A stretch of 64,000 nucleotides of DNA from Thermoanaerobaculia bacterium (GTDB taxonomy: Bacteria; Acidobacteriota; Thermoanaerobaculia; Multivoradales; JAHEKO01). Every line of letters starts with the position of its first letter. The stretch's first letter is position 1. Position numbers and translations under genes: made by a program. The notes under the pieces are model-generated. The model was not told where the DNA came from, did no database searches, and saw only the letters and a list, made by a program, of their open reading frames with translations. The stretch covers positions 20,922 to 84,921 of the forward strand of contig JBFGCA010000004.1 in NCBI GenBank assembly GCA_041567315.1, in the 5' to 3' direction. Below, piece by piece: positions 3,982 through 38,068 of the stretch.

Positions 3982-6900
3982 TCACGACGCTCTCTGCAGC
4001 TCGCCGGCGGGCTCGACGAAGCGGCCCAGCCGCCGCACCTGGGCGGTCTCGCCCAGCCTGAGCAGGCAGGGGAGGAGCACCAGGGTGAACAGGGTGCTGA
4101 CGCTCATGCCGCCGACGATCACTGCTGCCAGCCCGCGGTAGATGACGCTGCCGGCGCCGGGCAGGAGCAGCAGCGGCAGCATCCCGAAGATGCTGGTCAG
4201 GGTGCTCATGAAGATCGGCCGCAGCCGCACCCTGAGCGCCTGGTGGACCGCCTCGTCGCGGCGCGCCCCCTGGCGCTCGGCGGCGCGGGTCTGGTGGACC
4301 AGCAGGATGGCGTTGTTGACCACCAGCCCGAGCAGGATGATGAACCCGATCATGGTCAGCAGGTCGAGCGGCTGGAAGGTGACGAGGTTCAGCAGCCGGA
4401 GCGCGACCACCCCGCCCACCGTCGCCAGCGGCAGCGCCAGCACCACCAGCAGGCTGTCGCGGAGCGACCCGAAGAGCGCGCTCATCAGCAGGAACAGCAC
4501 CAGCAGCGCCACCAGGAAGTTCTGCGACATGGTGCGGATCGCCTGCCTCAAGCTGTCGGCGCTGCCGCCGTACTGGACGTTGCCGTCGGCCGGCAGGGCG
4601 GCGAGCAGCCGCGGCTCGACCTGCCCCTGCAGAATGTCGAGCGCCTCCTCGAGCGACATGCTGTCGGGCGGCGTCACCGCCAGGGTGACGGTGCGCCGGC
4701 GGTCGATGCGGTGGATGCTCGAGGGGCCCACCGTGCGCTCGATCCCCAGCAGCTCGCCGACCGGCAGCACCGCGCCCGAGGGGGTGGCCACCGGCAGCCC
4801 GGCCAGCTCCTCGGGGGTGCGCCACCCCTCGGCCCGCAGGATGACGTCGAGCCGCTTTTCGCCGTCGAAGTGCTCGCCCACCCACAGCCCGTCGCCCAGC
4901 GAGCGGATGACGTCGGCCACCGCCGGCCGCGTCCAGCCCACCTCGGCGATCCGCCGGTCGTCGGGGTGGAGCCGCAGCTCGGGCTCGGCCATCTCGGTCC
5001 CCGGCCAGGCCTGGGTCTGGGCGCCGGGGATCGCCTCGGCCACCACGTCGAGTCCGTGGGCGGCGGCCTCCAGCAGCGCCTCGCCCTCGGCCGACTGCAG
5101 GTGGACGGCGATCGAGCGGTCGCCGCCGAAGCCGCCGAACAGGTTGCCCTGGAAGACGAAGGCGCGGGTGTCGGGGAAGCCGGCCACCACCTCGTCGCGG
5201 ACGATCCGCTCGAGCTCCCTGACCCGGCCCTGGTCGAGCGCCCTCACCCCGACGGTGCCGCCGCCCGGCCACAGGATGAAGTAGTAGTTCTTGAGCGCCG
5301 GCTGCTTCTCGGCCCGCATGTAGGGCCCCAGCCGCTCGACCATCGGCTGGACGATCTCGCGCTCGATCGAGGCCAGGTTGGCCCCGGGCGGGAAGTTGAA
5401 GAAGCCGTCGACCGCGTCGCGCTTGACCGGTGGCAGGTAGTCGAGCTTGGGGATCAGGGTGATGGTGGTGGCGGCCGGCACCGCCATCAGCAGCGCGATC
5501 AGCGCCAGCCGGCGGCGCGGCCGATCGGTCCAGCCGATGATCCGGCCGGCGACGGCGCCCCAGAAGTCGGCGTGGGTGTCCTCCAGCCGGGCGTCGGTGA
5601 GCCAGCGCTTGGCGGCCGCCGGCAGGATCGTCACCGCCACCAGCAGTGAGATGGTCACCGCCATGGCGATGGTCAGCGCCAGGTCGGCGAAAAGCTGGCC
5701 CTCGACGTCTTTCAGGAAGATCACCGGCAGGAAGATGGCCACCGTGGTGGCGGTGGAGGCGATCAACGCCCCCCACACCTGCGAGGCGCCCTCGAGCGAG
5801 CCCTGGTGCGGCGAGCGCCCCTGCTCGCGAAGCCGGACGATGTTCTCGAGCACGATGATGGCGGCGTCGAGCACCATCCCCACCGCGAAGGCCAGCCCGG
5901 CCAGCGAGATGACGTTGAGCGAGCGGCCGCTCAGGTTCAAGACCACGAAGGTGGTGAGCAGCGAGATGGGGATGGCGGTGGCGACGATCAGGGTGGCGCG
6001 GAGCTGGCGCAGGAACCACCACAGGACGCCGATCGCCAGCAGCACCCCCAGCCCCAGGTTGGTGCGCACCAGCCCGATCGCCCGGTAGATGAAGACCGAG
6101 GCGTCGAAGCTCTGGGCGATGGTCAGGCCTTCCTCGGCCAGCGGCCCGTCGCGCAGCGCCGCCACCTCGGCCTTGACCCGGTTGAGGGTCTCCAGCACGT
6201 TGGCCTGGCTCTCGCGGTCGACGCGGATCGCCATCGCCGGGTTGCCGTTCTGGATCGAGAAGCCGGTGCGGTCGCCGCGCTTGACGCCGATGGTGGCGAC
6301 GTCGCCGAGCAGCACCGGCCGCCCCTCGCGCCAGTCGAGGACCAGCCCGGCGAGCTGCTCGGGGCCGTAGCGGCCGGCGAAGCGGAGGGTGTACTGCCGC
6401 CGGCCGACGTCCACGAAGCCGCCCGAGACGTCCTCGGCGCGGCCGGCCAGCGCCGCCACCCGCGGGATCTCGATCCCCAGCTCGGCGGCGCGGTAGGGGT
6501 CGAACTCGATCCGCAGCTCCTCGGGCGAGCCGGCGTTGACCTCGACGTGGGCCACCCCCTCGAGGTTCTCGAGCCGCGCCTTGACCACGTCCTCGACCAG
6601 TCGCTGGTAGTCCTCGATCGGCCCCGGGTTGCCGGGCAGCAGCTGGATGAAGAACCAGCTCAGCGCCTGGTTGGGCCCGCCGCCCCAGCCGCCGAGATGG
6701 ATGGTCGGCGGGGTGGCGTCGCGGGGCAGCGGCGGCAGCCGGTTGAGCCGGCTGATGACGTCGACCAGCGTCTGCTCCATGTCGGTGTCGAGCCCGAAGG
6801 TGAGGTTGATCCAGCTGCCGCCGGGGTTGGCGTTGGCGTTGAGCTCCTTCAGGCCCGGCAGCCCCTGGAGCACCTCCTCCTGGGGCTCGAGGATCTCGGC

Positions 6901-22961: not shown

Positions 22962-25424
22962 CTAGGCGTCGGGTCGCAGCACCAGGGTGTGGGCCACCGT
23001 CCCGGGCAGGAACGGGGCCGGCTCGCCGGCCGCCCAGGCCCGGTGGCCGGCCCGGTAGTGGGGAGAGAGCGGGTGGCCGCTCTGGCCGGCCGGCATGTGG
23101 AAGAGGCCCTCTTCCTCGCGGCCCGGCGCCACCACCAGGCGCTGGGAGGCGCCCTCGGCCGGCGCCTGGACGCGCGGCATGTGCGAGTCGCCGGGCAGCG
23201 GCTCGGCCGGCATGTCGAGCAGGCGGCCCGAACCGGGCAGGAAGCGGCTCAGCGGATGGCGGATCCTCGCGGTGTTGCGCTCCCCCCAGGTGCGGTCGGC
23301 GAGCCGGCCGCCGCGCTCGGCGAAATAGTCGAGCACGCCGTCGACGGCCGCCAGCAGCCGCTCCTCCCAGCTCGGCTCGGACGGCAGCAGCTCCGCCGGC
23401 TGTTCGTTCGCCAGCCGCCACAGCGCCGACTCGACCTGGTGCAGCTCGGCCAGGCGGAAGCGCTCGTCGGCCTGCCGGCAGGGGGCGGTGAGCTCGCCCA
23501 GCACCCGGTCGAGGAGCTCCAGCCGGAAGGCGCGGACCAGCCGGTAGCCGGCCGAGTCGACCGCCGCCCGGCCGCCCCAGTCCTCGACCAGGCGGCGCAG
23601 CTCGGCGCGCCCGTCGTGGCCGGCAGTGGCCTCGGGGGAGAGGACCTCGAGCAGCAGCCCCCGCCAGCGCTCCAGAAACAGCGCCCGGTCGTCGAGCTGG
23701 ACGGCCAGCAGGTCGCCTTCGGTGGCGCTCTCCAGCTCCAGCAGCCGGTCGCGGATCTGGCGGGCGCGGGCGCCCAGCACGTAGCCGCCGTGGCCGAGCC
23801 TGGCGAGCATCTCGCCGCCCACCACCCGGCTGTTGGCGGTCCAGATGCGCCCGCCCGGCGGGTCGGCGAGCCGCGGGTATTCGGCGGGGGCCAGATAGCC
23901 GTCCCAACCGCGGCCGCCGTCGGCCCAGGCCAGCGGCAGCCGGCCGTCGTGCCCGAAGCGGCGCGGCATCGGACCCATCACCGTCCAGCCGATGCGGCCA
24001 CCTGCGTCGGCCACCACGAAGTTCTGGGGCGGGGCGCCCACCCGGTTGGCGACCGCCATCGCCTCGTCGACGTCGCCGGCGCCCTCGAGCCCGACCAGCT
24101 CGAGATTCACCGCCGCGGCGTCGTGGGCGATCCAGCGCACCGCCCGCCGCCGCCCCTGGTGGTCGCGGTCGACAATCGGGCCCCACGGGGTCTCCTCGAC
24201 CTCCAGGACCTCGTCCTCGGCGCCGCGCACGCGCAGCACCTCGCGGTGGCGCTCGGGCAGGCGCGGTCCGTCGGGGGTGAGATAGGCGCCGCCGGCCTCG
24301 CCGTCCGGCGACTCGAGAACCACCAGGTCGATCCAGTCGCCGTAGGTGTTGGTGAAGCCCCAGGCCACGCGGCCGTTGCTGCCGACGATGACCAGCGGCC
24401 CGCCGGGCAGGGTGACGCCGGTGATCCGGCGCTCGCCGGCCGGGTCGCCGGGATCGGGGTAGACCAGCGAGGCGCGGTACCAGATGTTGGGCACCCCCAG
24501 CCCGAGGTGCATGTCGTTGGCGAGCATGGCCCCGCCGTGGGCGGTGTGGGCGCCGGCCACCGCCCAGTTGTTGGAGCCGGTGACCGCCGATTCTCCAGGC
24601 TCGGGTCCGCCGGGCCGGGGCCCGGGCGCTGCCGGCGCCGGCAGCGCGGGGACCGGCGGCAGCGGGAGCGGCGCCGCGACGGGGAGCGAAGCGGGTAGCG
24701 GGGGATCGGAAAGCGGCGTGCCGTCGATCGGAGCGTCCCAGCTCGTGCCCCAGGGGGCCAGGAAGTCGAGCCACTCGGGTCCCAGCAGGTCGTGGATCAG
24801 GCCCCACGCGGACTCCCGGCTGCCGTCCTCGTCGTGGAGCTGGAAGTACATGGCGTAGACCGCGAGCAGGGTGTCGGCCGGCCGCCAGGGCGCGGGCTCG
24901 GCGCCCAGCACCAGGTACTCGAACGGGGGCGCCTCCAGCGCCCACAGCCCGGCCCGGACCCCCTCGGCGTAGGCCTGGAGCAGCCGTTTGGTGACCGGGT
25001 CCGCGGTCTCTGCCAGCCGCTCGGCGCGCGCCCGGAAGCGATGCAGCCGGTGGGCGCGGTCGGCGGGCAGGGCCGCCTTGCCGAACAGCTCGGCCAGCTC
25101 GCCCGCCGCCTGCCGGCGCATCAGGTCCATCTGGAAGAAACGCTCTTGGGCGTGCAAAAACCCCAGCCCGCGCGTCAGGTCGAGCCGGTCCTCTGCGTAC
25201 ACCGTCGGGACCCCCAGGGAGTCCCGCGTGATCCGAACCGGCGCCGAAAGCCCCTCGACCGCGACCTCGCCGTCGAGCTGCGGCAGACTGGCCCGCAGCC
25301 GGCCGCGGCCCCACAGGGCCAGCCCGGCCGCCGTCGCCACCAGCAGCACCACGACCCCCAGCGCCAGCCGCCGCCACCGGCCGCCACCTGCTTGCGGCGC
25401 CCGCGGCGTCACCGGTTCGGCCAT
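22962..25424 (-). CDS. Penicillin acylase family protein (Ntn-hydrolase, peptidase S45)
   Basis: 820 aa. The spacer is followed by SNNWAV, the autoproteolytic N-terminal Ser of the beta subunit. Overall alpha-spacer-beta layout. Confidence 0.85.
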   Translation of the reverse strand: MAEPVTPRAPQAGGGRWRRLALGVVVLLVATAAGLALWGRGRLRASLPQLDGEVAVEGLSAPVRITRDSLGVPTVYAEDRLDLTRGLGFLHAQERFFQMDLMRRQAAGELAELFGKAALPADRAHRLHRFRARAERLAETADPVTKRLLQAYAEGVRAGLWALEAPPFEYLVLGAEPAPWRPADTLLAVYAMYFQLHDEDGSRESAWGLIHDLLGPEWLDFLAPWGTSWDAPIDGTPLSDPPLPASLPVAAPLPLPPVPALPAPAAPGPRPGGPEPGESAVTGSNNWAVAGAHTAHGGAMLANDMHLGLGVPNIWYRASLVYPDPGDPAGERRITGVTLPGGPLVIVGSNGRVAWGFTNTYGDWIDLVVLESPDGEAGGAYLTPDGPRLPERHREVLRVRGAEDEVLEVEETPWGPIVDRDHQGRRRAVRWIAHDAAAVNLELVGLEGAGDVDEAMAVANRVGAPPQNFVVADAGGRIGWTVMGPMPRRFGHDGRLPLAWADGGRGWDGYLAPAEYPRLADPPGGRIWTANSRVVGGEMLARLGHGGYVLGARARQIRDRLLELESATEGDLLAVQLDDRALFLERWRGLLLEVLSPEATAGHDGRAELRRLVEDWGGRAAVDSAGYRLVRAFRLELLDRVLGELTAPCRQADERFRLAELHQVESALWRLANEQPAELLPSEPSWEERLLAAVDGVLDYFAERGGRLADRTWGERNTARIRHPLSRFLPGSGRLLDMPAEPLPGDSHMPRVQAPAEGASQRLVVAPGREEEGLFHMPAGQSGHPLSPHYRAGHRAWAAGEPAPFLPGTVAHTLVLRPDA

Positions 25425-25504
25425 GACGGCGGAGTCTACCGGCTCGCCCGTGCTACGCTCCGGCGCCGGTCGCGCCGCGGCCGTTCCCTCCCGCTCACCG
25501 AGGC

Positions 25505-26874
25505 ATGACCCCCCGCCGCGCCGCCTTGCTGCTCGCCGCGCTGTTCCCCACCGCCTTGTCCGCCACCGACAAGCCGCTGACCGTGCCCTACGAGCAGTTC
25601 GTGCTGCCCAACGGGCTCAACGTCATCGTCCACTCCGACCACACGACGCCGGTGGTCAGCGTCAACATCCGCTACGACGTCGGCTCGGCTCGCGAGAGAC
25701 CGGGGCGCACCGGTCTGGCGCACCTCTTCGAGCACATCCTCTTCGAGGGCTCGGAGCACGTGCCCGAGGGGAAGTTCGACGAGTGGCTGGAGGCCGCCGG
25801 CGGCACCAACAACGGGGCTACCGACTCGGACCACACTTTCTACTGGCAGGACGTGCCGAGCAACGCGCTCGAGCTGGCGCTGTTCCTGGAGTCGGACCGC
25901 ATGGGCCATCTGCTGGCGGCGATGAGCCCCGCCAAGGTAGACGGCCAGCGCGACGTGGTCAAGAACGAGCGCCGGCAGTCGGTCGAGAACCGACCCTACG
26001 GTCTGGCCTGGGAGACCCTGGACGAGAATCTCTACCCGCCGGGGCATCCGTATCACCACCCGACGATCGGCTCGATGGAGGACCTGACCGCGGCCAGCTA
26101 CGAGGACGTGGTCGAGTTCTTCCGTGACTACTACGGTCCCGGCAACGCCACCCTGTCGGTGGCCGGCGACGTCGAGCCGGCGGCCGCCCGGCGGCTGGTG
26201 GAGAAGTGGTTCGGCGACGTGCCGCCGGGGCGCCCGCCGCCCGGCTCGAGACCGACAAGCGGCTGGTGCTGGAGGACCGGGTGCAGCTGCCGCGGCTCTA
26301 CGTCTGCTGGCTGTCGCCGCCGCGCTTCGCCCCCGGCGACGCCGAGCTCGACCTGGCCGCGGACCTGCTGGCCGGCGGCCGCAGCTCGCGGCTCTACCGC
26401 CGGCTGGTCTACGAGCTGGAGTCGGCGCAGGAGGTGGTGGCCTTCCAGCGCTCGCGGCGGTTCACCTCCACCTTCTGCATCCTGGCCACCGCCCGCCAGG
26501 GCCACGGGCTGGCCGAGCTGGAGGCCGAGATCTCGACCCAGATCGACCAGCTGGCCGACGACGGTCCGACCGAGCGCGAGCTGACCGGCGCCATCCATCG
26601 CTACGAGACCGAGTTCCTCGGCCGGCTCGAGCGGGTCGGGGGCTTCGACGGCAAGGCCGACCTGCTCAACCTGTACTACCTGGAGACCGCCAACCCCGAC
26701 TACTTCAACGAGGACCTCAGCCGCTACCGTGCCGTCGGGCCGGCCGACCTGCGGGCGGCGGTTCGCGCCCATCTGCGGCCGGCGGCCCGGGTGGTGCTCA
26801 GCGTGGTGCCGGAAGGCCGGCGCGGGTTGGCGGTGCCCGCCGGGGAGGAGGCGTCGATCGCTGCGGATGGCTGA
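25505..26874 (+). CDS. M16 family zinc peptidase (pitrilysin-like; HxxEH motif); reading frame apparently disrupted near 26240
   Basis: HLFEHILFEGS inverted zinc-binding motif. Homology continues in the +1 frame (ORF 26206..26874: ...ARLETDKRLVLEDRVQLPRLY) after a C-rich run (ccgccgccc). This indicates a 1-nt indel or a sequencing error. Confidence 0.7.
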
Positions 26875-26953
26875 ACCTCCGCGGCGGCGTCGGCCGCGGT
26901 TACCGGGCGATCGCGGGTCGGTGCGGCCGGCGCGACGCCGAACGGCCTGTTCG

Positions 26954-28615
26954 ATGGCCCTTTGGACGACCCGTCGCCGGGCGCCGCGGTGGATTCGCCG
27001 GGCGATTGCCCGGACCGTCCGGCGATCGACTGGCGCGGTTCTGACGAGGGCCGGTCTGCTGACCGCGGTCCTGTTCACCGGGGCGGCGCCGGTCGCGGTC
27101 GCCGCCCGGTCATCCCCGGAGACACCTGCCATCATGCCCGACAGCCTGCCCGCCACCCCCGACCGCAGCCGGCCGCCCGAGCTGGGGCCGCCGCCCGCCC
27201 TGTCGCTGCCGCCGCTCCAGCGTCTGCGGCTGGGCGGCGGGCTCGAGGTGGTGCTGCTCGAGAAGCACGAGGTGCCGCTGGTCGAGGTCGAGCTGCTGGT
27301 GCGCGCCGGTTCGGCCGGCGATCCGGCCGGCCGGGAGGGGCTCGCCGAGCTGACCGCCGCGCTGCTCGACAAGGGAGCCGGCGGCCGCGGCGCCCTCGAG
27401 ATCGCCGAGGCGGTGGAGTTCCTGGGCGCCGAGCTCCAGACCTGGTCCGACTACCACGACTCCGGGGTGCGGCTGTTCGCGCCGGTGGCGCGGCTGGCCG
27501 ACGGGCTGCCGCTGCTCGCCGACGTGGCGCTGCGGCCGGAGTTCGCCGCCGAGGAGCTGGACCGCCAGCGCCGCGACCGGCTGACCGAGCTGCTCAGGGC
27601 GCGCGACGAGCCGCGCACGGTGGCCGCCGTGCAGCTGGACCGGGCGCTCTACGGCGACCGGCATCCCTATGGCCGGCAGCCGGGGGAGGCCAGCCTGCGG
27701 TCGCTCGCCCCCGACGACCTGCGCGCCTTCCACCGCCGCCACTATCGGCCGGACAACGCCGTGCTGCTGGTGGTTGGCGACGTCACCGCCGCCGACCTGC
27801 TGCCGCTGCTGCAACGGGCCTTCGCCGGCTGGGCCGGGGCGTCCCAACCCCAGCAGGGTGGCGAGACGTCCGCGGAGACGGCGCCCGACCGAGAGGTGAC
27901 CGTCGAACCGGAGACGGCGGAGCAGACGCCCGTCGAGGCGGGGCCGGCGCCCGGCGGGGCGGGCGGCCGCCGCGTCTATCTCGTCGACATGCCTGGTGCC
28001 GCCCAGTCCGAGGTCCGCGTCGGGCGGGTGGGGGCGCCGCGCGATACGCCGGACTACTTTCCGCTGACGGTGATGAACACGGTGCTGGGGGCCTCCTTCA
28101 CCTCGCGGCTCAACTCCAACCTGCGCGAGGACAAGGGCTACGCCTACGGCGCCTACTCGCGCTTCCGCCTGCGCCGGCAGGCGGGACCGTTCTTCGCCGG
28201 CGCCGCCGTCCAGACCGACGCCACCGCCGCTACCGTCACCGAGATCCTGCGCGAGCTGGAGGCCATCCGCCGGATCACCCCCGAGGAGCTGGAGCGGGCC
28301 CGCAACTACGCCGCCCTCACCTATCCGCGCCGCTTCCAGTCGGTCGCCGGCATCACCGACGAGCTGGCCGAGCTGGTCCGCCACCGGCTGGCCGAGGACT
28401 TCTTCAACAGCTACGTCGAGCGGGTGCTGGCGGTCGGCCGCGAAGAGGCCGAGGCCGTCGCCGCCCGCTGGATCGACCCCGAAGACGTGGCGGTGGTGGT
28501 GGTCGGCGACCGCGCCCAGGTCGAGGCCGAGCTGCGCGCCCTGGGGATCGGCCCGGTCGAGACCCTGACCGTCGAAGACGTGCTCGGCCCGGCGCCCAGA
28601 CTCACCGACGGCTGA
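26954..28615 (+). CDS. M16 family peptidase-like protein lacking the HxxEH motif (probable non-catalytic partner subunit)
   Basis: Signal peptide (MALWTTRRRAPRWIRRAIARTVRRSTGAVLTRAGLLTAVLFTGAAPVAVAA). M16 N- and C-domain homology (RVYLVDMPGAAQSEVRVG...). In-frame ATG of ORF 26729..28615. Confidence 0.75.
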   Translation: MALWTTRRRAPRWIRRAIARTVRRSTGAVLTRAGLLTAVLFTGAAPVAVAARSSPETPAIMPDSLPATPDRSRPPELGPPPALSLPPLQRLRLGGGLEVVLLEKHEVPLVEVELLVRAGSAGDPAGREGLAELTAALLDKGAGGRGALEIAEAVEFLGAELQTWSDYHDSGVRLFAPVARLADGLPLLADVALRPEFAAEELDRQRRDRLTELLRARDEPRTVAAVQLDRALYGDRHPYGRQPGEASLRSLAPDDLRAFHRRHYRPDNAVLLVVGDVTAADLLPLLQRAFAGWAGASQPQQGGETSAETAPDREVTVEPETAEQTPVEAGPAPGGAGGRRVYLVDMPGAAQSEVRVGRVGAPRDTPDYFPLTVMNTVLGASFTSRLNSNLREDKGYAYGAYSRFRLRRQAGPFFAGAAVQTDATAATVTEILRELEAIRRITPEELERARNYAALTYPRRFQSVAGITDELAELVRHRLAEDFFNSYVERVLAVGREEAEAVAARWIDPEDVAVVVVGDRAQVEAELRALGIGPVETLTVEDVLGPAPRLTDG

Positions 28616-28703
28616 TCGCAGCCGGCTCCTCGGCCCGTCGGGCGCCGGACGGAGCGGCGAAGGGGCCGAGCCGGCCGACCGGGCACCGAGTCCAGCGGAC
28701 GGC

Positions 28704-28916
28704 TCAGGTCGCCGGGCGCCCGCGGAGCAGCCGCCCGGGCAGCGCCAGCAGCCCGCGCAGCAGGTCCAGGACGCCGTCGACGGCCAGCCCCAGCAGCCGG
28801 AAGGGCAGCAGCAGCAGCCAGACCAGCGGGTAGAGCACCAGTACCACAAGCGCCAGCGGCCAGCTCAGCACCAGCAGGATGCACCACAGCAGGAAATTGC
28901 GCACGGCGGTGCCCAT
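28704..28916 (-). CDS. Small hydrophobic membrane protein (hypothetical)
   Basis: Internal Met of ORF 28704..28961 (MGTAVRNFLLWCILLVLSWPLALVVLVLYPLVWLLLLPF...), two predicted TM helices. Could be spurious. Confidence 0.35.
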   Translation of the reverse strand: MGTAVRNFLLWCILLVLSWPLALVVLVLYPLVWLLLLPFRLLGLAVDGVLDLLRGLLALPGRLLRGRPAT

Positions 28917-29130
28917 CCTCCTAGCAGTACGCACCCGGTCCCGGCGGGTTTCGCTCGCCACGGCTGACGAGGGCGCCTCCAGCTCTCAGCCGTCCCCAGA
29001 GCTGGTGGCTGTCGAGCTGCTGGAGGATCTCCTCTTAGCAGGACCTTTCCTTGAGGCTGGCGTAGGCCCCGGGAAGTAGACCGCGGTCAGCTCGGCGCCG
29101 CCGTCCGCCGCCGCCACGACATGACGGTCC

Positions 29131-29198
29131 CGCGCCGGCTGCCCGTCGTCGAATAGGCGGGTGCTGAAGTAGCGCTCGCGCGGCGCCGTGACGAGATG
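29131..29198 (-). pseudogene. Displaced 3'-terminal remnant of a cysteine-synthase-like gene
   Basis: Minus-strand translation ...APRERYFSTRLFDDGQ... parallels the authentic C-terminus ...GDRGERYFSTRLFESE of the 30613..31506 gene. No start codon. Confidence 0.35.
29155..29179. repeat. Direct repeat copy A (aggcgggtgctgaagtagcgctcgc), identical to the cysteine-synthase 3'-terminal sequence
   Basis: 25/25-nt identity with 30629..30653. The imperfect similarity extends about 10 nt to each side. Confidence 0.7.
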
Positions 29199-30533
29199 TC
29201 AGCCGCCCAGGGTGACGACGAAGGCGGCGATCTTCATCGCGACTCGCATCACCGTTGGGGCGAGGTCCTCGACCGCCTTTGCCGCCTGTTTGAGGCCCTC
29301 AATCGAGAGGTCCAGGAATCCCCGATCGGGCTTTTCCTTGGTGGCCTCAGCGACCACCAGCTCGGCGGTCTTCGCTACTCGCTCGCCGTCCTCGGGTCTT
29401 TGCTCCGCCACCGTCTTGAGGGCCTCCTGTAGCTCGGCTATCAGTGCGGCAAGCCGCTCCTGCTGGTCGGCGGGCAGCATAGGTGCGTTTCGCACGATCT
29501 GGGTCACCCGCTCGAGGCGCGACTTGATGTTGACCGGACCCACGACATTCGACACCTGGATCTTGTCCTTCGACATGTCGACTCCTATCTGTTGCCCCAC
29601 CATGTTGAAGATTACATCGCGCGCCTGCGCCGAATAGCTCCCCTGTGTGCTGCCTTCTTGAATCAGTGCCCTCCGATAGCGGCGGACCTTCTCCTGGTCC
29701 TTCAGCTCGAGATAGTCCTCTTCGAACACGCTGACTTCATGGTTCACGGTCTGGCACAGCTCGTCGAGACGCGCCGCCGAGACCCTTCGAGGCTGGTACT
29801 CGTCGGGTACCCGCGAGTCGAATGCATGGTCGGGGTTGCGGCTCAGGAGGATCGTGGGCAGTAGCGCGGCGCGCACGGCGCCAAGCAGATAGAACTCGCG
29901 CGGTGACAGCTCTTCCACGAACGAGATGCAGAGGCTGGCCCTGGAAACCTGCTGCTCGTACGGGTGCTCGTAGGAGAGGTAGTCCACGCCCGCCGGCACC
30001 ATGATCGGACTGTATTTGAGCGTCTTGAGCTGCTCCTCGAGTCTGGCGCCGCCCCCCTCCGCCAGCGCCGAAGCTCCGATCACCAGGCACTGTCGCTGTC
30101 CCGAAGAGAGCTCGTAGGTCGGTGGGGGCTCGGTGCCTAGATAGGTCTTGAGAATGCGCAGCGCATGTCGGTGATTGCGGACCTCCCGCAACAGTTGACG
30201 GCGTGAGAACCGCCGCTGGAGCAGGGTGTCCGGTATCGAGTCGTCAGGTAGCACGTCCTCGACGAATATCAGAGCCGGCTTTCGGGCACGAACGCAGAGC
30301 GCGATCTCGTAGAGGATGTAGCTCGAGGGCTCGGGGTCTCGATACGGGAGGACCGCGATCATGCCGTCCGTATTGCGAAGATGGCGCTCGGCCTTGGCGG
30401 CGTTGAGATGGTCCTGATCGGCTGGCGGGTCGAGGCTGGGCGTCATGCCCTCGCTGAGCATGAGTTCCTGGAAGAACTCGTTGATGTCGTTGTCCGGTGG
30501 CCGGTAGCTGTGTGAGTAGTAGACGATGTACAT
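29199..30533 (-). CDS. Hypothetical protein on a lower-GC cassette: tandem TIR-like / flavodoxin-fold (SLOG-like) domains plus a C-terminal helical region
   Basis: 444 aa, starting at the ATG MYIVYYSHSY (the track ORF begins 2 codons earlier at a TTG). GC is about 55-63% against about 70% in the flanks. Rare codons (ata, cta, aga, agg). The N-terminal strand-helix pattern (YIVYYSH...DINEFFQEL...ILYEIALCVRARKPALIFVED) repeats in a second unit (CLVIGAS...LCISFVEELSPREFYLLGAVRAALLPTILL). Confidence 0.65.
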   Translation of the reverse strand: MYIVYYSHSYRPPDNDINEFFQELMLSEGMTPSLDPPADQDHLNAAKAERHLRNTDGMIAVLPYRDPEPSSYILYEIALCVRARKPALIFVEDVLPDDSIPDTLLQRRFSRRQLLREVRNHRHALRILKTYLGTEPPPTYELSSGQRQCLVIGASALAEGGGARLEEQLKTLKYSPIMVPAGVDYLSYEHPYEQQVSRASLCISFVEELSPREFYLLGAVRAALLPTILLSRNPDHAFDSRVPDEYQPRRVSAARLDELCQTVNHEVSVFEEDYLELKDQEKVRRYRRALIQEGSTQGSYSAQARDVIFNMVGQQIGVDMSKDKIQVSNVVGPVNIKSRLERVTQIVRNAPMLPADQQERLAALIAELQEALKTVAEQRPEDGERVAKTAELVVAEATKEKPDRGFLDLSIEGLKQAAKAVEDLAPTVMRVAMKIAAFVVTLGG

Positions 30534-30612
30534 CGGCAACGCCGTCCCGATTGGCTACCTGACCACCCAAGAGGTTGGGGGGTCGTGACGCGAGCCTGCC
30601 CGCATCGCGCGG

Positions 30613-31506
30613 CTACTCCGATTCGAACAGGCGGGTGCTGAAGTAGCGCTCGCCGCGGTCGCCGAAGACGACGACGACGTTGCCCTCGTCCATCTCGGCG
30701 GCGAGCTGTTGGGCGGCCCACAGGCAGGCGCCGGAGCTGAGGCCGGCGAGGATGCCCTCGCGGGCGGCGATCTCGCGGGTCACCCGGTAGGCGTCCTCTT
30801 CGGGGGCCTCGAAGGTGCGGTCCAGGAGCGAGCGGTCGTAGATCGGCGGCTGGTAGGTCTCCGAGGAGTGTTTGAGGCCGTCGATCTTGGCCCGCGGCTC
30901 GCCCCCCGGCTCGACGGCGCAGATGGCGGCCCGGATCCCGCGCTCGCGGAAGCACTCCGCGACCCCGGTCAGCGTGCCGCCGGTGCCGTAGCCGGCGACG
31001 AAGGCGTCGATCCGGCCGTCGAGGGCCGCCGCCACCTCGGCGCCGGTCTCCAGCCGGTGGACCTCGACGTTGTCGCGGTTCTCGTTCTGGTTGATGTAGA
31101 AGTAGCGGCCGGGCTCCGACTCGATCAGCTCCTTGGCGCCGAAGATGTGGCTGTCGGGGTCGTCCTTGGTGGTCAGCACCAGCTCGGCCCCCCAGTAGCG
31201 AAGCATCTTGCGGCGCTCCAGGGTCTTGTTCTCGAGCATGAAGAGCTTGAGCCGGTAGCCCTTGACCGCCGCCACCATCCCCAGCGCGATGCCGGTGTTG
31301 CCGCTGGTGGCCTCGACGATGGTCATCCCCGGCTCCAGCTCGCCGCGCCGCTCGGCCTCCTCGATCATGTAGCGGGCGATCCGGTCCTTGAGCGACCCGC
31401 TGGGGTTGGCCAGCTCCAGCTTGGCCCAGATCGCCACCCGCGGGTTGGGGCTCGACCGCGCCAGCCGCACCAGCGGCGTGTTCCCGATCTGCGCGAGGAC
31501 GTCCAT
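30613..31506 (-). CDS. Cysteine synthase (O-acetylserine sulfhydrylase, CysK/CysM family; PLP-dependent)
   Basis: 297 aa. PLP-lysine motif SGSLKDRIA, TSGNTGIALGMVAA, GTGGT loop. Confidence 0.9.
   Translation of the reverse strand: MDVLAQIGNTPLVRLARSSPNPRVAIWAKLELANPSGSLKDRIARYMIEEAERRGELEPGMTIVEATSGNTGIALGMVAAVKGYRLKLFMLENKTLERRKMLRYWGAELVLTTKDDPDSHIFGAKELIESEPGRYFYINQNENRDNVEVHRLETGAEVAAALDGRIDAFVAGYGTGGTLTGVAECFRERGIRAAICAVEPGGEPRAKIDGLKHSSETYQPPIYDRSLLDRTFEAPEEDAYRVTREIAAREGILAGLSSGACLWAAQQLAAEMDEGNVVVVFGDRGERYFSTRLFESE
30629..30653. repeat. Direct repeat copy B, lying within the last codons of the cysteine synthase gene
   Basis: Identical 25-mer. Encodes ...ERYFSTRLF of cysteine synthase on the minus strand. 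Confidence 0.7.
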
Positions 31507-31601
31507 TGGTCAGGTGAAACCCGGGTCGTCGCCGGGTCAGCAGCGGCCCAAGGATATGTCGACCCTGGCCCGGGCGCGAAATGCGGGCGCCCCCAGGGCT
31601 T

Positions 31602-32969
31602 TCAGCCGGTGGGTTCCGCCGGGCGGTCGGCGGCGTCCGGGCGGCGTCGGGGGGTCATCTCGAGCTTCTCGTAGATGGCGGCGAAGCGGGGGTTGGTGGC
31701 TTCGACCTGGGCGAGGACGCGCTGGGAGGCGGCTTTGTCGCCGGCGTGCTCGAGGGCCCAGGCCAGGTTGAGGCGGTTGTACAGCTTGAGGACGCCGCCT
31801 CCCATGCCCCAGTAGTAGATCGCGTCGTCGGCGCCGCGCATCCGCTCGATGGCCTCTTCGTACTGGCCCAGCATCGCCAGCCGCGAGCCCTCGAGGTGCA
31901 TCTCGAAGGCCTTCAGAAAACCGGCGTAGAGCGGGCTGGCGGTGTCGTCGTCCGCCATCCTGAGCAGCTCCTCCTCGATCGCCAGCGCCTCGGCCGTGCG
32001 GCCGCTGAGCACCGCCATGCGGTGGACCAGAAACGGCGGCTCCTCGAGGATCTGGTGGCAATGGACCATCTCGTCACGCCACGGCGCGTCGAAATCGAGG
32101 GCCAGGAAGGCCTTCCACAGACGCGCCCAGCAGCGCAGCTTCTCGATCTCCTTGCCGCAGTTGGGCGCCGCCCGGTCGACCACCGCGTCGAGGTTTTCGG
32201 GACGGCCCTCGAGCACCGCCAGGTTGAGCAGATTGAAGTATGAGGCGCAGAAGTCAGGCTTGATCGCCAGCGCCTGCTCGAGCTGGCTGCGGGCCTCGTC
32301 GTAGCGGCCGACCACCATCAACATCTCGCTCAGCGAGTCGTAGGGGTTGGCCTGGTCGGGGGCGATGAACTTGTAGGTCTCGAAGTGCTCCTCGGCCTCC
32401 TGGAACTTGCCCTGGGCGAGGGCCAGGTAGCCGAGGAGGTTGTGGGCCGTGACCCAGTTGGGGTCGGCCTCGAGCAGCCGCCGGAAGTGGCGCTCGGCCT
32501 TCTCCCAGTCCTGGTCATCGAAGGCCTGGGTCGAGCAGTTGAACAGGGCATAGGGGTCGCCGGGGTGGCGCTCCAGGTACTCCTCGAGCAGCCGGCGGGC
32601 GTCGTCGGTCCGGCGCTCGGCGACGGCCAGGGTGTAGCCCACAAGGAAGCGCTCGCGGTCGTTGAGCCGCTGGAGGTCGGCCTCGCGCAGCTCGGCGAGC
32701 AGCCGGTCGCGCTCCTCGCCGAACCACAGCAAGTCGATCAGCCGGACCTTGGCGGCGGCGAACCCGGGGTCGAGCTCGAGGGCTCGGCGGAAGTGCCCCA
32801 GCGCGTCGCGGCGGTAGTACTTCATGTGGGCTGCCAGCCCCCGCTCGAACTCGGCGAGCGCCTGCTCGGACGTGGTCGTCCACTGGGGCCCGCTGCCGCG
32901 GGCCATCACCATCATCGCGGCGCCGGCGAGGACCAGCGGCACGGCGATCCACCAGATCTTGCGCATCAT
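31602..32969 (-). CDS. TPR-repeat protein with N-terminal membrane anchor
   Basis: 455 aa with multiple TPR units. Start overlaps the upstream PP2C gene stop by 4 nt (ATGA). Confidence 0.7.
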   Translation of the reverse strand: MMRKIWWIAVPLVLAGAAMMVMARGSGPQWTTTSEQALAEFERGLAAHMKYYRRDALGHFRRALELDPGFAAAKVRLIDLLWFGEERDRLLAELREADLQRLNDRERFLVGYTLAVAERRTDDARRLLEEYLERHPGDPYALFNCSTQAFDDQDWEKAERHFRRLLEADPNWVTAHNLLGYLALAQGKFQEAEEHFETYKFIAPDQANPYDSLSEMLMVVGRYDEARSQLEQALAIKPDFCASYFNLLNLAVLEGRPENLDAVVDRAAPNCGKEIEKLRCWARLWKAFLALDFDAPWRDEMVHCHQILEEPPFLVHRMAVLSGRTAEALAIEEELLRMADDDTASPLYAGFLKAFEMHLEGSRLAMLGQYEEAIERMRGADDAIYYWGMGGGVLKLYNRLNLAWALEHAGDKAASQRVLAQVEATNPRFAAIYEKLEMTPRRRPDAADRPAEPTG

Positions 32970-35488
32970 CGAGCCTCCCGGTCGCGGGCGACCGCGACCA
33001 GCGTGATGTCGTCGTAGGGCTCACCACCCGAGGTGAAGGCCCGCAGCTCGGCCAGCACCCGGGCGATCACCGCGTCGGGCGCGGCGGGGGCGCCGGCGAC
33101 CACCGCCGCCAGCCGCTCGACGCCGAACGGCTCGCCGCCCGGGGCGCGCGCCTCGACGACGCCGTCCGAGTAGCCGAGCACCAGGTCGCCCGGCGCCATC
33201 GCCACCCGCTGGACCCGGTAGTCGCCGTTGAGGAGGGCGCCCAGCGGCAGGCGGTGGTCGGGCAGCGGCAGCTCGGCGACCTCACCGTCCCGCCGCCGCA
33301 CCAGCGGCTGCGGCTGGCCGGCCAGCACGTAGTCCAGCCCGTCGCCCTCCTCGGTCGTGGCCAGGTAGGCGAGGGCCACGAAGCTCTTGCGCTGGCCCAG
33401 GCCGTAGAGCCGCCGGTTGGCGAGCGCCATCAGCCGTCCCGGCTCGGAGTGGCTGAGGGCGAGGGAGTGGAGCGCCTCGTGGGCGGCCATCATCAGCAGC
33501 GCCCCCGACACCGACTTGCCGGCCACGTCGCCGTAGACCAGCGCCCGCGAGCCGCTGCGGGTGCCGGGCAGCTGGGTGTAGAAGTCGCCGCCGACGTGGC
33601 GGGCCGGCCGGCAGACCGCCGCCACCCGCCAGCCGGGGCCCAGGTCGAGGGCGGCCGGCAGCAGCTCGCTCTGCACCGCGGCGGCGATCTGCAGCTCGCG
33701 CTCGAGCTCCGCCTGCTGGGTCCGCTCCTCGAGCAGCAGACTGGTCTCGAGGGCGATCGCCGCCTGGTCGAGCAGGCTGTCGAGCAGGTCCAGCTCGCTG
33801 CGGTCGAGCTCCATCTGACCGCGCTTGCCCGACAGCAGGACGATGCCGATCCGCCGCCGCGGCGAGGCCAGCTCGCCGGCCAGCTCCACCCCCGCCGCCT
33901 GCAGGGCGTCGATGCCGCCGGCCAGCTCGGCCGAGACGCCGGGGCTGTCGCGCAGGACCGCCAGCTCGCGCAGCCGCCGCCGGCTGGGCAGCTCGGCGGC
34001 GGCGCCGGGCAGCGGCAGCTTGGCGGGCAGCCGGTCGGGACCGGCCACCCGCTCGAGACGGTCGCCACGGATCAGATAGAGGGCGGCGAAGTGAAGTCCC
34101 ATCACCTGCGGCAGCCGGTCCACCAGGTCGCGGACCACCTGCTGGAGATCCACCTGGGCGGTCAGCGCCCGTCCCAGCTCGCGCATCGCCTCCTCGAGCC
34201 GCCGCCGCTCGGCGAAGAAGGAGCGGTCGACGATCACCTGGAGGCGATGCCGCACCGGCTCGAAAAGCAGCACGATGACCAGCGCGAAGAGCAGCGGGAA
34301 GTAGGGCGAGGCGGCCAGCGGGCTGCCCTTGGCCACCACGTTGAACAGCGTGATGCCCAGTGCGTAGAGGGCGGTCACCACCGCGGTGGTGGCGGTGTAG
34401 AGCAGGCTCTTGCGCAGGATGACCCGGATGTCGAGGAGCTGGAAGCGAACGATCCCGTAGGTGAAGGTGAGCGGCACCAGGGCGAGCGGCGCCAGCCCGT
34501 AGTAGAGGAACTTCTCGGTGTGGAGAAAGGACGGGAAGGCGACCGCCGTGGTCAGGAACGGCAACAGGCCGAAGACCGACCCGAAGAGCACCAGCGCCGC
34601 CCCCCGCCGCAGCCGCGGATCGGCCAGCCGCCGGGTGTTGAGGGTGAGGGCCACCAGCCCGAGGACCATGTAGATGGCCAGCACCCACCAGTTGGCCGCC
34701 GGCGCGCCGCTGATCAACGGCAGCTCGACGCCGCGCAGCCGAGCGCGCATCAGGGTGCCGGCGAGCACCAGCGGCGGCAACAGATAGACCGTCGTCAGCA
34801 GGGTCAGCCACGCCCGCCGCCGCCGCCGGAAACCGGGCTCGCCGGGCTCCGGCCGCGCCGCCACCGGCCGCGGGAAGACCAGGAAGAAATGCAGAAAGCA
34901 GGCGGGGAGGAAGAGCAGCGCCACCATGCCGGTGGTCAGCACGAAGCTGTCGACCCAGGTGTAGGAGGCCGGCCGCAGGCGGCAGACCAGGAACAGCAGG
35001 AAGAGGATCGAGAGCACGAAGAACAGCTGGGCGGGGCGCAGGGCGGGCTGCCGGCTGAGCACGAACAGACCCACGAAGAAGAACGCGAACCCCAGCAGAC
35101 AGGCGTAGAGGTAGGGTCCGCCGCCGGCCCGGCGGCGGCCCAGCTCGACCTCGACCTCGCGCAGGCCCTCGCGGTCCTTGACCAGATAGGGCACCGAGGC
35201 CCCCACGCTGTAGCGGTTGAGCAGCACCGCGGCGTGGGTGGTCGAGCGCAGCATGGTGCGTCCGATCCCCAGGATGCGGTCGCCGGGGCGGATGCCGGCC
35301 CGATGGGCGCCGCTGTCCTTGACCACCTGCCGGACCCGCAGCTCGGCCGGAGCGTCGGCCTCCAGCACCACCCCGTCGTAGGGCCGCGGCAGGTACATGT
35401 CGGCAATCGACAGACCGGCCAGCAGAAAGGCGATCAGACCGAACGCCTGGAGCACACGGGTGACCCTGGGGCGCGAGGTGCCCATCAC
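32966..35488 (-). CDS. PDZ / multi-TM / GAF / PP2C (SpoIIE-RsbU-type) serine phosphatase
   Basis: 840 aa. N-terminal PDZ-like region (RVRQVVKDSGAHRAGIRPGDRILGIG), about 8 TM helices, a GAF-like region and a C-terminal PP2C domain (GDFYTQ...YGDVAGKSVSGAL...DDITLV). Confidence 0.8.
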   Translation of the reverse strand: MMGTSRPRVTRVLQAFGLIAFLLAGLSIADMYLPRPYDGVVLEADAPAELRVRQVVKDSGAHRAGIRPGDRILGIGRTMLRSTTHAAVLLNRYSVGASVPYLVKDREGLREVEVELGRRRAGGGPYLYACLLGFAFFFVGLFVLSRQPALRPAQLFFVLSILFLLFLVCRLRPASYTWVDSFVLTTGMVALLFLPACFLHFFLVFPRPVAARPEPGEPGFRRRRRAWLTLLTTVYLLPPLVLAGTLMRARLRGVELPLISGAPAANWWVLAIYMVLGLVALTLNTRRLADPRLRRGAALVLFGSVFGLLPFLTTAVAFPSFLHTEKFLYYGLAPLALVPLTFTYGIVRFQLLDIRVILRKSLLYTATTAVVTALYALGITLFNVVAKGSPLAASPYFPLLFALVIVLLFEPVRHRLQVIVDRSFFAERRRLEEAMRELGRALTAQVDLQQVVRDLVDRLPQVMGLHFAALYLIRGDRLERVAGPDRLPAKLPLPGAAAELPSRRRLRELAVLRDSPGVSAELAGGIDALQAAGVELAGELASPRRRIGIVLLSGKRGQMELDRSELDLLDSLLDQAAIALETSLLLEERTQQAELERELQIAAAVQSELLPAALDLGPGWRVAAVCRPARHVGGDFYTQLPGTRSGSRALVYGDVAGKSVSGALLMMAAHEALHSLALSHSEPGRLMALANRRLYGLGQRKSFVALAYLATTEEGDGLDYVLAGQPQPLVRRRDGEVAELPLPDHRLPLGALLNGDYRVQRVAMAPGDLVLGYSDGVVEARAPGGEPFGVERLAAVVAGAPAAPDAVIARVLAELRAFTSGGEPYDDITLVAVARDREAR

Positions 35489-35533
35489 CGGTGGTACGAG
35501 GAAAGCGGCCCGGGGTTCGCGGCCATCGGTTTC

Positions 35534-38068
<2,535 letters not shown>

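Follow-up and report, generated by a model that had tools for sequence, protein, structure and literature searches.

A previously undescribed family of mobile tandem TIR/NDT-like proteins with a helical tail, represented in a Thermoanaerobaculia bacterium

TIR and nucleoside deoxyribosyltransferase (NDT)-like N-glycosidases are central to bacterial, plant and animal immunity. TIR and DrHyd domains act as NADase or nucleotide-processing effectors of conflict systems (PMC9503650), and new clades repeatedly prove to be defence enzymes that deplete nicotinamide adenine dinucleotide (NAD+) or nucleotides. One example is Swarozyc, in which a DUF4062 TIR-like NADase and a helical auxiliary domain are joined in one protein (bioRxiv 10.64898/2026.05.01.722283). 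Another is the NDT-like effector of retron Ec86, which, like the NDT-type enzymes, works as a dimer (bioRxiv 10.1101/2023.08.16.553469). Effectors of conflict systems can also carry effector-associated domains (EADs), coupling domains that are small, helical, non-enzymatic and terminal, occur in neighbouring genes and are linked to NTPases (PMC7159879). Here, we describe an open reading frame (ORF) in a 64,000-nucleotide stretch of contig JBFGCA010000004.1 from a Thermoanaerobaculia bacterium (hereafter the window). Its product belongs to a previously undescribed family of mobile proteins that combine two tandem TIR/NDT-like domains with a helical tail. We put at about even the chance that this ORF encodes a horizontally mobile conflict-system effector, an NAD+ or nucleotide N-glycosidase built as a pseudo-dimer and gated by its tail.

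A conserved family with two TIR/NDT-like domains

The ORF (Table 1) starts at the ATG at position 30533 (MYIVYYSHSY), homologs making no use of a TTG two codons further upstream, and ends in the stop codon at 29199-29201. Among 5.8 billion proteins searched, 147 are homologs (E ≤ 1e-3), nearly all of them 437-445 residues long and every one annotated as hypothetical; in a 34-sequence alignment, end-to-end identity is 48-69%. Because there are many full-length homologs, and because a family profile gave 2,107 matches at E ≤ 1e-3 among 1.84 billion cluster representatives, the ORF is a real, conserved gene. The homologs come from Acidobacteriota (Thermoanaerobaculia and Solibacteraceae among them), Burkholderiales (Paraburkholderia, Variovorax and Pseudorhodoferax), a delta-proteobacterial metagenome-assembled genome (MAG), soil and peat metagenomes, and a Hymenobacter plasmid.

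A first-pass annotation of this DNA had proposed a protein of tandem TIR-like or flavodoxin-fold domains with a helical tail, matching no characterised system. The ORF and all the peptides it quoted are present in the sequence: DINEFFQEL (residues 16-24), ILYEIALCVRARKPALIFVEDVLPDD (73-98), CLVIGAS (149-155), YSPIMVP (174-180), LCISFVEELSPREFYLLGAVRAALLPTILL (201-230) and MRVAMKIAAFVVTLGG (429-444). Its statement on novelty agrees with our searches. Residues 1-310 fall into no family of Pfam, NCBIfam or PHROGs; the protein searched against these libraries and PDB sequences gave a weak DUF4404 match, chance matches and nothing more; a PADLOC match is confined to the tail; and the whole-family profile (A2) found nothing meaningful in the PDB.

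The proposed folds also stood up to the check that had been suggested, structure prediction followed by comparison of both domains. An AlphaFold2 model built with the 34-sequence alignment (mean predicted local distance difference test (pLDDT) 79.5) places a beta-alpha-beta domain 1 at residues 1-135 and a domain 2 at 147-250, followed by helices (256-313), a low-confidence segment (298-333) and a helical bundle (336-442). Both N-terminal domains are flavodoxin-like, Rossmannoid folds of TIR/NDT type, with NDT/DNPH1 and TIR domains as their top structural neighbours. The protein has the five-stranded parallel flavodoxin-like alpha/beta fold seen in solved TIR domains.

Table 1. Features of the insertion and of the protein it encodes, in window coordinates
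Feature	Position	Strand	Basis
Complete ORF, 444 residues + stop; unnamed family of ~440-residue proteins	29199..30533	-	homolog alignment, common start
Domain 1, residues 1-137; TIR/NDT(DNPH1)-like Rossmannoid, predicted catalytic	30123..30533	-	fold, alignment to Rcl, invariant residues
Domain 2, residues 143-256; second TIR/NDT-like fold, degenerate	29766..30107	-	fold, Y215-L216 replaces Tyr-Glu
Helical linker, residues 257-297; conserved FEEDYLEL and RY motifs	29643..29765	-	homolog alignment, AlphaFold2
Conserved low-confidence segment, residues 298-333; contains DMSKDKIQVSNVVGPVNIKS; start of tail module	29535..29642	-	alignment, AlphaFold2
C-terminal helical bundle, residues 334-444; ends in hydrophobic helix	29202..29534	-	DUF4404, PDC-M14B, modular distribution, hydropathy
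Direct repeat, left copy (core 30623-30653); functional 3´ end of the PALP gene, encoding ...ERYFSTRLFESE and the stop	30610..30653		repeat alignment
Direct repeat, right copy (core 29149-29179); displaced non-functional copy of the PALP gene end	29136..29179		repeat alignment
Inserted low-GC segment between repeat cores; 1474 bp with one repeat copy	29180..30622		GC, repeats
Target gene: PLP-dependent cysteine synthase family (PALP), 297 residues	30613..31506	-	ORF call, family match

Evidence for the identity of domain 1 comes from diverged relatives and from alignment to a known enzyme. When 47 relatives at 24-45% identity were scanned singly against Pfam, TIR_2 was matched by 14 of them at E ≤ 0.1 (best E 4.2e-7), Nuc_deoxyrib_tr by eight (E 3e-4 to 0.1) and Nuc_deoxyri_tr2 by two; where inspected, the TIR_2 and Nuc_deoxyrib_tr matches fall in domain 1. 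In bit score, relative P0127 reaches 22.7 against TIR_2 (PF13676; cut-off 28), and relatives reach about 17-19 against PF05014 (cut-off 28.8). The domain 1 profile was also aligned by hhalign to rat DNPH1/Rcl, whose sequence had been checked against PDB 4fyh, with an E value of 4.5e-4. The alignment pairs P-S70 with P-S87, Y75-E76 with Y92-E93, and K85-P86 with a K-P of Rcl, giving the common motif PS....YE[LI].......KP.L. In Rcl, S87 binds the phosphate, and catalysis relies on E93. As in DNPH1 and NDT, the glutamate at the catalytic position of domain 1 opens the helix after strand 4, with the serine six residues earlier.

S70, E76, P86, R108 and F109 are invariant even across the relatives at 24-45% identity, and the close homologs add Y5, H8, S9, Y10, R11, K47, R50, H51, R65, R82, E92, D93, R111, R116, R119 and H121. 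As judged from the alignments, domain 1 retains the DNPH1/NDT-type Ser/Glu constellation (S70, E76) and is apparently an active copy of a fold that cleaves nucleotides or NAD. By eye, its strand-1 motif VYYSHSYR resembles VYFCGSIR of Rcl, a part that hhalign did not return. The Ser-x-Arg position lies in the loop that contacts the nucleotide in domains of the TIR/DrHyd class (PMC9503650), and the strand-1 loop of domain 1 may correspond to the nucleotide-contacting loop of the Rcl class.

Domain 2 looks like a degenerate counterpart. It gave a weak hhalign match to the same segment of Rcl (E 0.011) in which Y215-L216 faces Y92-E93; with Leu216 at the Glu position, it would lack the catalytic carboxylate and is probably non-catalytic. 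We regard the two domains as a duplication because of their fold and because each aligns separately to Rcl. Domain 2 may be the intramolecular dimer partner of domain 1.

A DUF4404-like tail shared with other proteins

The C-terminal 170 residues had been described beforehand as helical. This is roughly so, and just approximate, because a conserved non-helical stretch interrupts the helices. Residues 298-333 have a pLDDT below 50, yet M320, S321 and G332 are invariant in homologs, and the segment is homologous to the beginning of an alternative tail found in other proteins. Residues ~317-442 match Pfam DUF4404 (PF14357) with an E value of 0.015 and 16.4 bits, against a cut-off of 27. The tail also matches PADLOC PDC-M14B (E 5e-8) over profile positions ~143-249 of 267, that is, in its C-terminal half. 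The N-terminal half of PDC-M14B was matched by none of the tail-bearing proteins tested, and PDC-M14A gave no match among the neighbour genes tested; with one match partial and the other absent, membership in the PADLOC candidate system PDC-M14 was rejected. Against the PDB, the tail profile (A3) found designed helical bundles, Cry6Aa and apolipophorin only, all at E > 0.04, and the literature searched held no mention of PDC-M14 or DUF4404. A tail profile search returned 430 proteins; among the 120 that were listed, stand-alone ORFs with a length of 122-135 residues form the majority, and many carry a precomputed PF14357 match, marked weak for P0438. On these profile matches, the tail is best described as a divergent branch of DUF4404.

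The tail is modular. In a search of cluster representatives, the tandem N-terminal module (residues 1-310) was found with the other tail in many proteins of ~425 residues, and the window-type tail ends many proteins with unrelated N-termini, including a multi-pass membrane domain and several globular domains without known identity. Homology between the two tail types extends over their first 70 columns (hhalign probability 80%, E 1.4e-5). A large N-terminal domain with the motif R.F.SDG.AV..(V/F)E…LRMHL.RLHAE.E.L is repeatedly fused to a DUF4404-like tail (L021:4-1581, P0204, P0218) and is a further candidate effector or sensor module. In the family alignment A2 (P0121-P0184), one diverged member bears a strong match to the ternary complex associated domain 2 (TCAD2; E 1e-23) where the tail usually stands.

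Tail-bearing genes also occur next to each other and next to an NTPase. A solo tail ORF of 126 residues ends 8 nt before a 980-residue nSTAND1/AAA_16/TPR gene (L085:5001-8331; also in L086 and L087), an arrangement which suggests that the DUF4404-like tail family is an accessory of STAND-type conflict systems. A six-frame scan of the loci revealed, in L012, a 392-residue gene (an otherwise nameless X domain plus tail) 177 nt upstream of the family member; in L072, a gene with the same X domain and tail that ends 20 nt before the family member; and in L007, another N-terminus with the tail 1.5 kb upstream of the family member. The X domain (L012:9203-11886 and L072:5-1346) carries the motif RWFNRLYYDVR.WNK, and the two-gene arrangement recurs. 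In L012, a QatC homolog lies 1.3 kb downstream of the pair. No second copy of the tail was found in a six-frame scan of the 64 kb window.

We liken the tail to the effector-associated domains because it is small, helical and terminal, is common to adjacent genes and stands beside a STAND NTPase. Its occurrence in other proteins and, elsewhere, beside a STAND NTPase is what a coupling adaptor would show. This likeness raises the possibility that the same enzyme is not autonomous, and that the tail is an EAD-type adaptor through which a trans-acting effector or signal generator would be recruited and activated by a core component that bears or binds such a tail, for example an nSTAND1 NTPase or an X-tail partner, encoded elsewhere in the genome. 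The solo tail ORF directly upstream of the nSTAND1/AAA_16/TPR protein, the tail-bearing genes that precede family members in L012, L072 and L007, and the relative with TCAD2, a domain of NTPase-centred conflict systems, all speak for it. However, the window holds no second tail, the gene stands alone at most loci without a conserved partner, and no fusion of a tail copy to a core protein was seen, as would be expected of classical EAD systems. We consider this explanation possible but doubtful.

The final helix of the tail allows another interpretation, in which the protein is a non-catalytic nucleotide-binding or membrane-anchored stress protein, with Rossmannoid ligand sensors and an anchor like those of ElaB/YqjD. 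Hydropathy of this helix is borderline for a transmembrane segment (1.65 for the window protein; 16 of 35 tails reach 1.6 or more), and one source labels a solo tail protein as ElaB/YqjD/DUF883-like. Inactive TIR, DrHyd and SLOG members are known to serve as sensors (PMC9503650). AlphaFold2, however, packs the last helix into the bundle (pLDDT ~90), the alternative tails are not hydrophobic, and the strict invariance of E76, S70 and a ring of Arg, His and Lys residues argues for catalysis, making such a protein improbable. Since the hydropathy is only borderline, we also set aside a transmembrane tail anchor as such.

Repeat-bounded single-gene insertions

The gene lies in the lowest-GC kilobases of the window (guanine-plus-cytosine (GC) fraction 0.62-0.67, against ~0.73) and is flanked by a direct repeat of 44 nt. 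The copies are spaced 1474 nt apart, the right one beginning 20 nt past the ORF stop, and their 31-nt cores are identical at 30 positions. The left copy supplies the end of the cysteine synthase, RLFESE before the stop, where orthologs end in RLFE, RLFD or RLFESEPSR. One ORF, ~90 nt upstream of it and ~20 nt downstream make up the 1474-bp unit, in which there is no recombinase, tRNA or Rfam RNA, and a regulatory RNA, promoter or terminator was sought in the insert without success. The low GC and the flanking direct repeats bear out the words "cargo" and "cassette" used in the first-pass annotation.

Similar repeats bound other family members. At each locus, the 700 nt upstream of the gene were aligned against the 700 nt downstream; flanks paired across loci served as the mismatched control and scored 10.1 on average, with a 99th percentile of 13. 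Scores exceeded the control at eight independent loci: L029 (score 45, repeat of 78 nt), L033/L034/L036 (31, 40 nt), the window (29, 31-44 nt), L039 (18, 57 nt), L008 (17, 23 nt), L011 (16, 20 nt), L005 (15, 21-53 nt) and L006 (14, 34 nt). The sequence of the repeat differs from locus to locus. In L008, it is the 3´ end of an 810-residue gene; in L011, it adjoins the stop of a convergent kinase gene; and in L033/L034/L036, it begins within the final 18 nt of tRNA-Leu(CAG), at the 3´ end. At this tRNA, the homolog sits in an islet of 1.8 kb (L033:4242-4350 and 6134-6173; likewise in L034 and L036), with no integrase within 4-6 kb of the L033 islet. The cargoes of L006 and L033 are close relatives, homologous from about -190 to +72 around the ORF, but occupy different sites with different repeats. 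Repeat-bounded single-gene units of 1.5-2.3 kb therefore occupy different sites. The gene is a singleton, non-syntenic in every genome inspected, and its GC lies below that of the flanks in high-GC hosts and above it in the lowest-GC host, L012. It is horizontally acquired.

Several familiar vehicles were considered and rejected. No recombinase domain is found among the neighbours in the window, L026, L033/L034 or L077-L080; a decayed island with a nearby integrase was dismissed, with no recombinase around the tRNA-Leu site or in the window. We rejected an integron gene cassette because the flanks are direct repeats of the target and not attC sites; no hairpin-forming pair lies beside the stop, and an integron integrase was not sought. 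A phage or plasmid origin was set aside with no phage matches and two plasmid matches, one of them a relative with 75% coverage on the Hymenobacter plasmid.

Two unconventional accounts address how such units move. In the first, the element is a minimal integrative cassette without a recombinase, a single conflict gene that passes from the 3´ end of one tRNA or protein gene to that of another. Each move, by a trans-acting or homology-assisted mechanism or with the tandem TIR/NDT-like protein itself taking part, would leave behind imperfect direct repeats that are long (20-78 nt) and specific to the site. In parallel, the DUF4404-like tail would act as a new kind of coupling adaptor between dispersed effectors and NTPases of the nSTAND1 type. 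We regard this combination as unlikely. In the second, the protein is the mobility enzyme of its own minimal insertion element, which would explain one gene flanked by target-derived repeats. Single-gene repeat-bounded units of this size at different sites, with no recombinase inside or nearby, fit such an element, as does the alpha/beta topology of the resolvase catalytic domain, which is related to the TIR/NDT-like fold. Even so, we hold it to be very improbable.

An empty site was not obtained. The closest cysteine synthase orthologs (83-79% identity; L076, L082 and L083) have a different downstream gene, so no pre-insertion sequence could be aligned. Their gene order is TPR, penicillin amidase, DUF4395/rhodanese, PALP and a convergent gene, and that of the window (22962-38068) is LigD, SpoIIE, TPR, PALP, the insert, two M16 peptidases and penicillin amidase; relative to L076, L082 and L083, the insertion site coincides with a rearrangement breakpoint. 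Past the right repeat copy, the displaced cysteine synthase frame (28962-29179) continues for ~60 codons (…RLFDDGQPARDRHVV…) to a stop near 28990. Orthologs stop 0-6 residues past RLF. The original end of the PALP gene, or the region downstream, was probably altered when the insert arrived. Directly downstream of the insert, at 28704-28961 on the minus strand, is a very hydrophobic, Leu/Trp-rich ORF of 85 residues that contains internal direct repeats of 18-34 nt (28736-28882); in related contigs, a gene of 66-70 residues without a Pfam match is called at this position.

The surroundings of the gene vary. Known defence or toxin-antitoxin genes were found in ~4 of 11 inspected neighbourhoods: QatC (E 8e-58) within a few kb in L012; a RmrA-like helix-turn-helix/M78 gene with DUF4411 (a RosmerTA-like pair) and a type VI secretion system RNase toxin in L024; AbiEi_2 and IS21 in L028; and RelE/ParE, IS3, integrase fragments and RHS on the Hymenobacter plasmid. 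The remainder are housekeeping; in the window, L026 and L077-L080, the gene is surrounded by metabolic or regulatory genes of ordinary kinds. The first-pass annotation had named homologs consistently in housekeeping contexts at native GC as the finding that would count against it. The contexts are partly of that kind; the GC and the synteny are not.

These surroundings bear on whether the protein is instead a housekeeping or salvage nucleotide N-hydrolase that, like DNPH1 or MilB, removes aberrant nucleotides and has no role in conflict. DNPH1/Rcl and MilB are the best single-domain structural matches, the Ser/Glu motif matches that of DNPH1, and metabolic genes are common among the neighbours. 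A salvage enzyme is nevertheless hard to reconcile with a patchy spread over Acidobacteriota, Burkholderiales, a delta-proteobacterial MAG and a Bacteroidota plasmid, with the lack of synteny, the atypical GC and the repeat-bounded insertions, or with 300 extra residues that include a tail in common with a defence candidate and a STAND-adjacent ORF. We think this role quite unlikely.

Proposed function and comparison with known systems

Starting from what is directly supported, namely the ORF, the family, the two folds, the Ser/Glu conservation and the basic, invariant surface of domain 1, the modular tail and the repeat-flanked insertion, we infer a substrate, a pseudo-dimer, a trigger, a regulatory role for the tail and a function in defence. 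In this model of a mobile effector, domain 1 would be an N-glycosidase of the TIR/DrHyd(NDT) class. The H8-S9-Y10-R11 loop and S70 would hold a phosphate of the substrate, and the carboxylate of E76 would catalyse cleavage between base and ribose in NAD+ or a (deoxy)nucleotide. Domain 2 probably substitutes for the second subunit that NDT-type enzymes require, so that one chain would form a pseudo-dimer. The DUF4404-like tail, not itself an enzyme, would serve in assembly or as an adaptor and would keep the enzyme inactive until a triggering event, for instance infection by a phage, leads to homotypic association of the tail with itself or with other tail-bearing proteins. The activated enzyme would then deplete NAD+ or nucleotides, so that growth of the infected cell stops and the infection is aborted. 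We draw this last part by analogy with Swarozyc, a single-protein TIR-like NADase.

A number of observations weigh against the effector model. Pfam gives the window protein no TIR match even at E ≤ 10 and no Nuc_deoxyrib_tr (PF05014) match, and the hidden Markov model support for membership in either group is sub-threshold. The hhalign match of domain 1 to Rcl has a probability of 33% over 33 columns, and domains 1 and 2 aligned to each other reach no significance at the sequence level. Most neighbourhoods are housekeeping, with no conserved defence context or neighbour, and phage collections and PHROGs gave no matches that would link the gene to phage conflict. The model is built on sequence, fold and context, and its enzymatic, toxic and anti-phage activities are predictions.

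The family is common in soil Acidobacteriota and Burkholderiales, and its predicted enzymatic part has no model in Pfam, NCBIfam or PADLOC. The pairing of an apparently active and a degenerate copy in a single chain could clarify how a normally dimeric fold is gated, and the tail ties the family to the large, unexplored DUF4404-like set, the candidate PDC-M14 and nSTAND1 NTPases. The repeat-bounded single-gene islets lend themselves well to asking how single defence genes enter gene 3´ ends with no recombinase of their own.

Of the described systems, Swarozyc offers a close parallel in architecture. In it too, one chain begins with a TIR/NDT-like domain in which the Glu at the catalytic position is conserved, and continues with a short segment of beta structure and a helical part, a stalk or auxiliary domain that Swarozyc needs for regulation. 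Both spread horizontally, with just some copies in defence islands. In contrast to Swarozyc, the family described here carries two TIR/NDT-like domains in tandem, the second of them degenerate, and ends in a DUF4404-like tail, and neither the window protein nor the 47 relatives match DUF4062 (E ≤ 0.1). The first-pass interpretation is borne out in part, at the level of fold and superfamily; the stand-alone immune or NADase-type effector that it named is still a candidate.

DNPH1 and the NDT enzymes (PF05014, clan Nribosyltransf) are the closest structural neighbours and share the PS/YE/KP motif, and the two copies of the fold in one chain recall the dimer that NDT-type enzymes require. The family differs from them in its sub-threshold Pfam score, an identity of 15-18%, one degenerate copy in place of a homodimer and 190 extra C-terminal residues; in the window, no retron reverse transcriptase or noncoding RNA lies near the gene. 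It also differs from the canonical TIR NADases (SARM1, plant TIRs, ThsB, TIR-STING/Cap12 and SPARTA) in having no Pfam TIR match, and the ThsB model matches one of the 47 relatives (E 0.0099). No ThsA, CD-NTase, Argonaute or STING partner gene was found near the gene in the window or the other loci inspected, and Thoeris (ThsB plus ThsA) was rejected, with no SIR2/Macro-SLOG ThsA neighbour in the window or 10 other loci.

The tail resembles the EADs (Kaur et al., 2020, PMC7159879) and DUF4404/PDC-M14B in being small, helical and non-enzymatic with varied N-terminal modules, and, as with EADs, it is duplicated in adjacent genes and found beside a STAND NTPase. Unlike the EADs, it matches no named member, and the NTPase-adjacent copy is a separate ORF and not a fusion. 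The insertions share imperfect direct repeats of 20-78 nt and 3´-end sites with tyrosine-recombinase islets at the 3´ ends of tRNAs and genes. In contrast to these, the inserts are 1.5-2.3 kb with one gene and no integrase inside or within several kb, and, unlike in integrase-borne islands, the repeat sequence differs at every site, even between L006 and L033 with their related cargo. By the tests that define them, the protein is not assignable to TIR_2, PF05014, DUF4062, Thoeris or PDC-M14. Three features, the tandem of an apparently active and a degenerate TIR/NDT-like domain, the DUF4404-like tail and the repeat-bounded single-gene islets, are absent from the libraries and literature searched.

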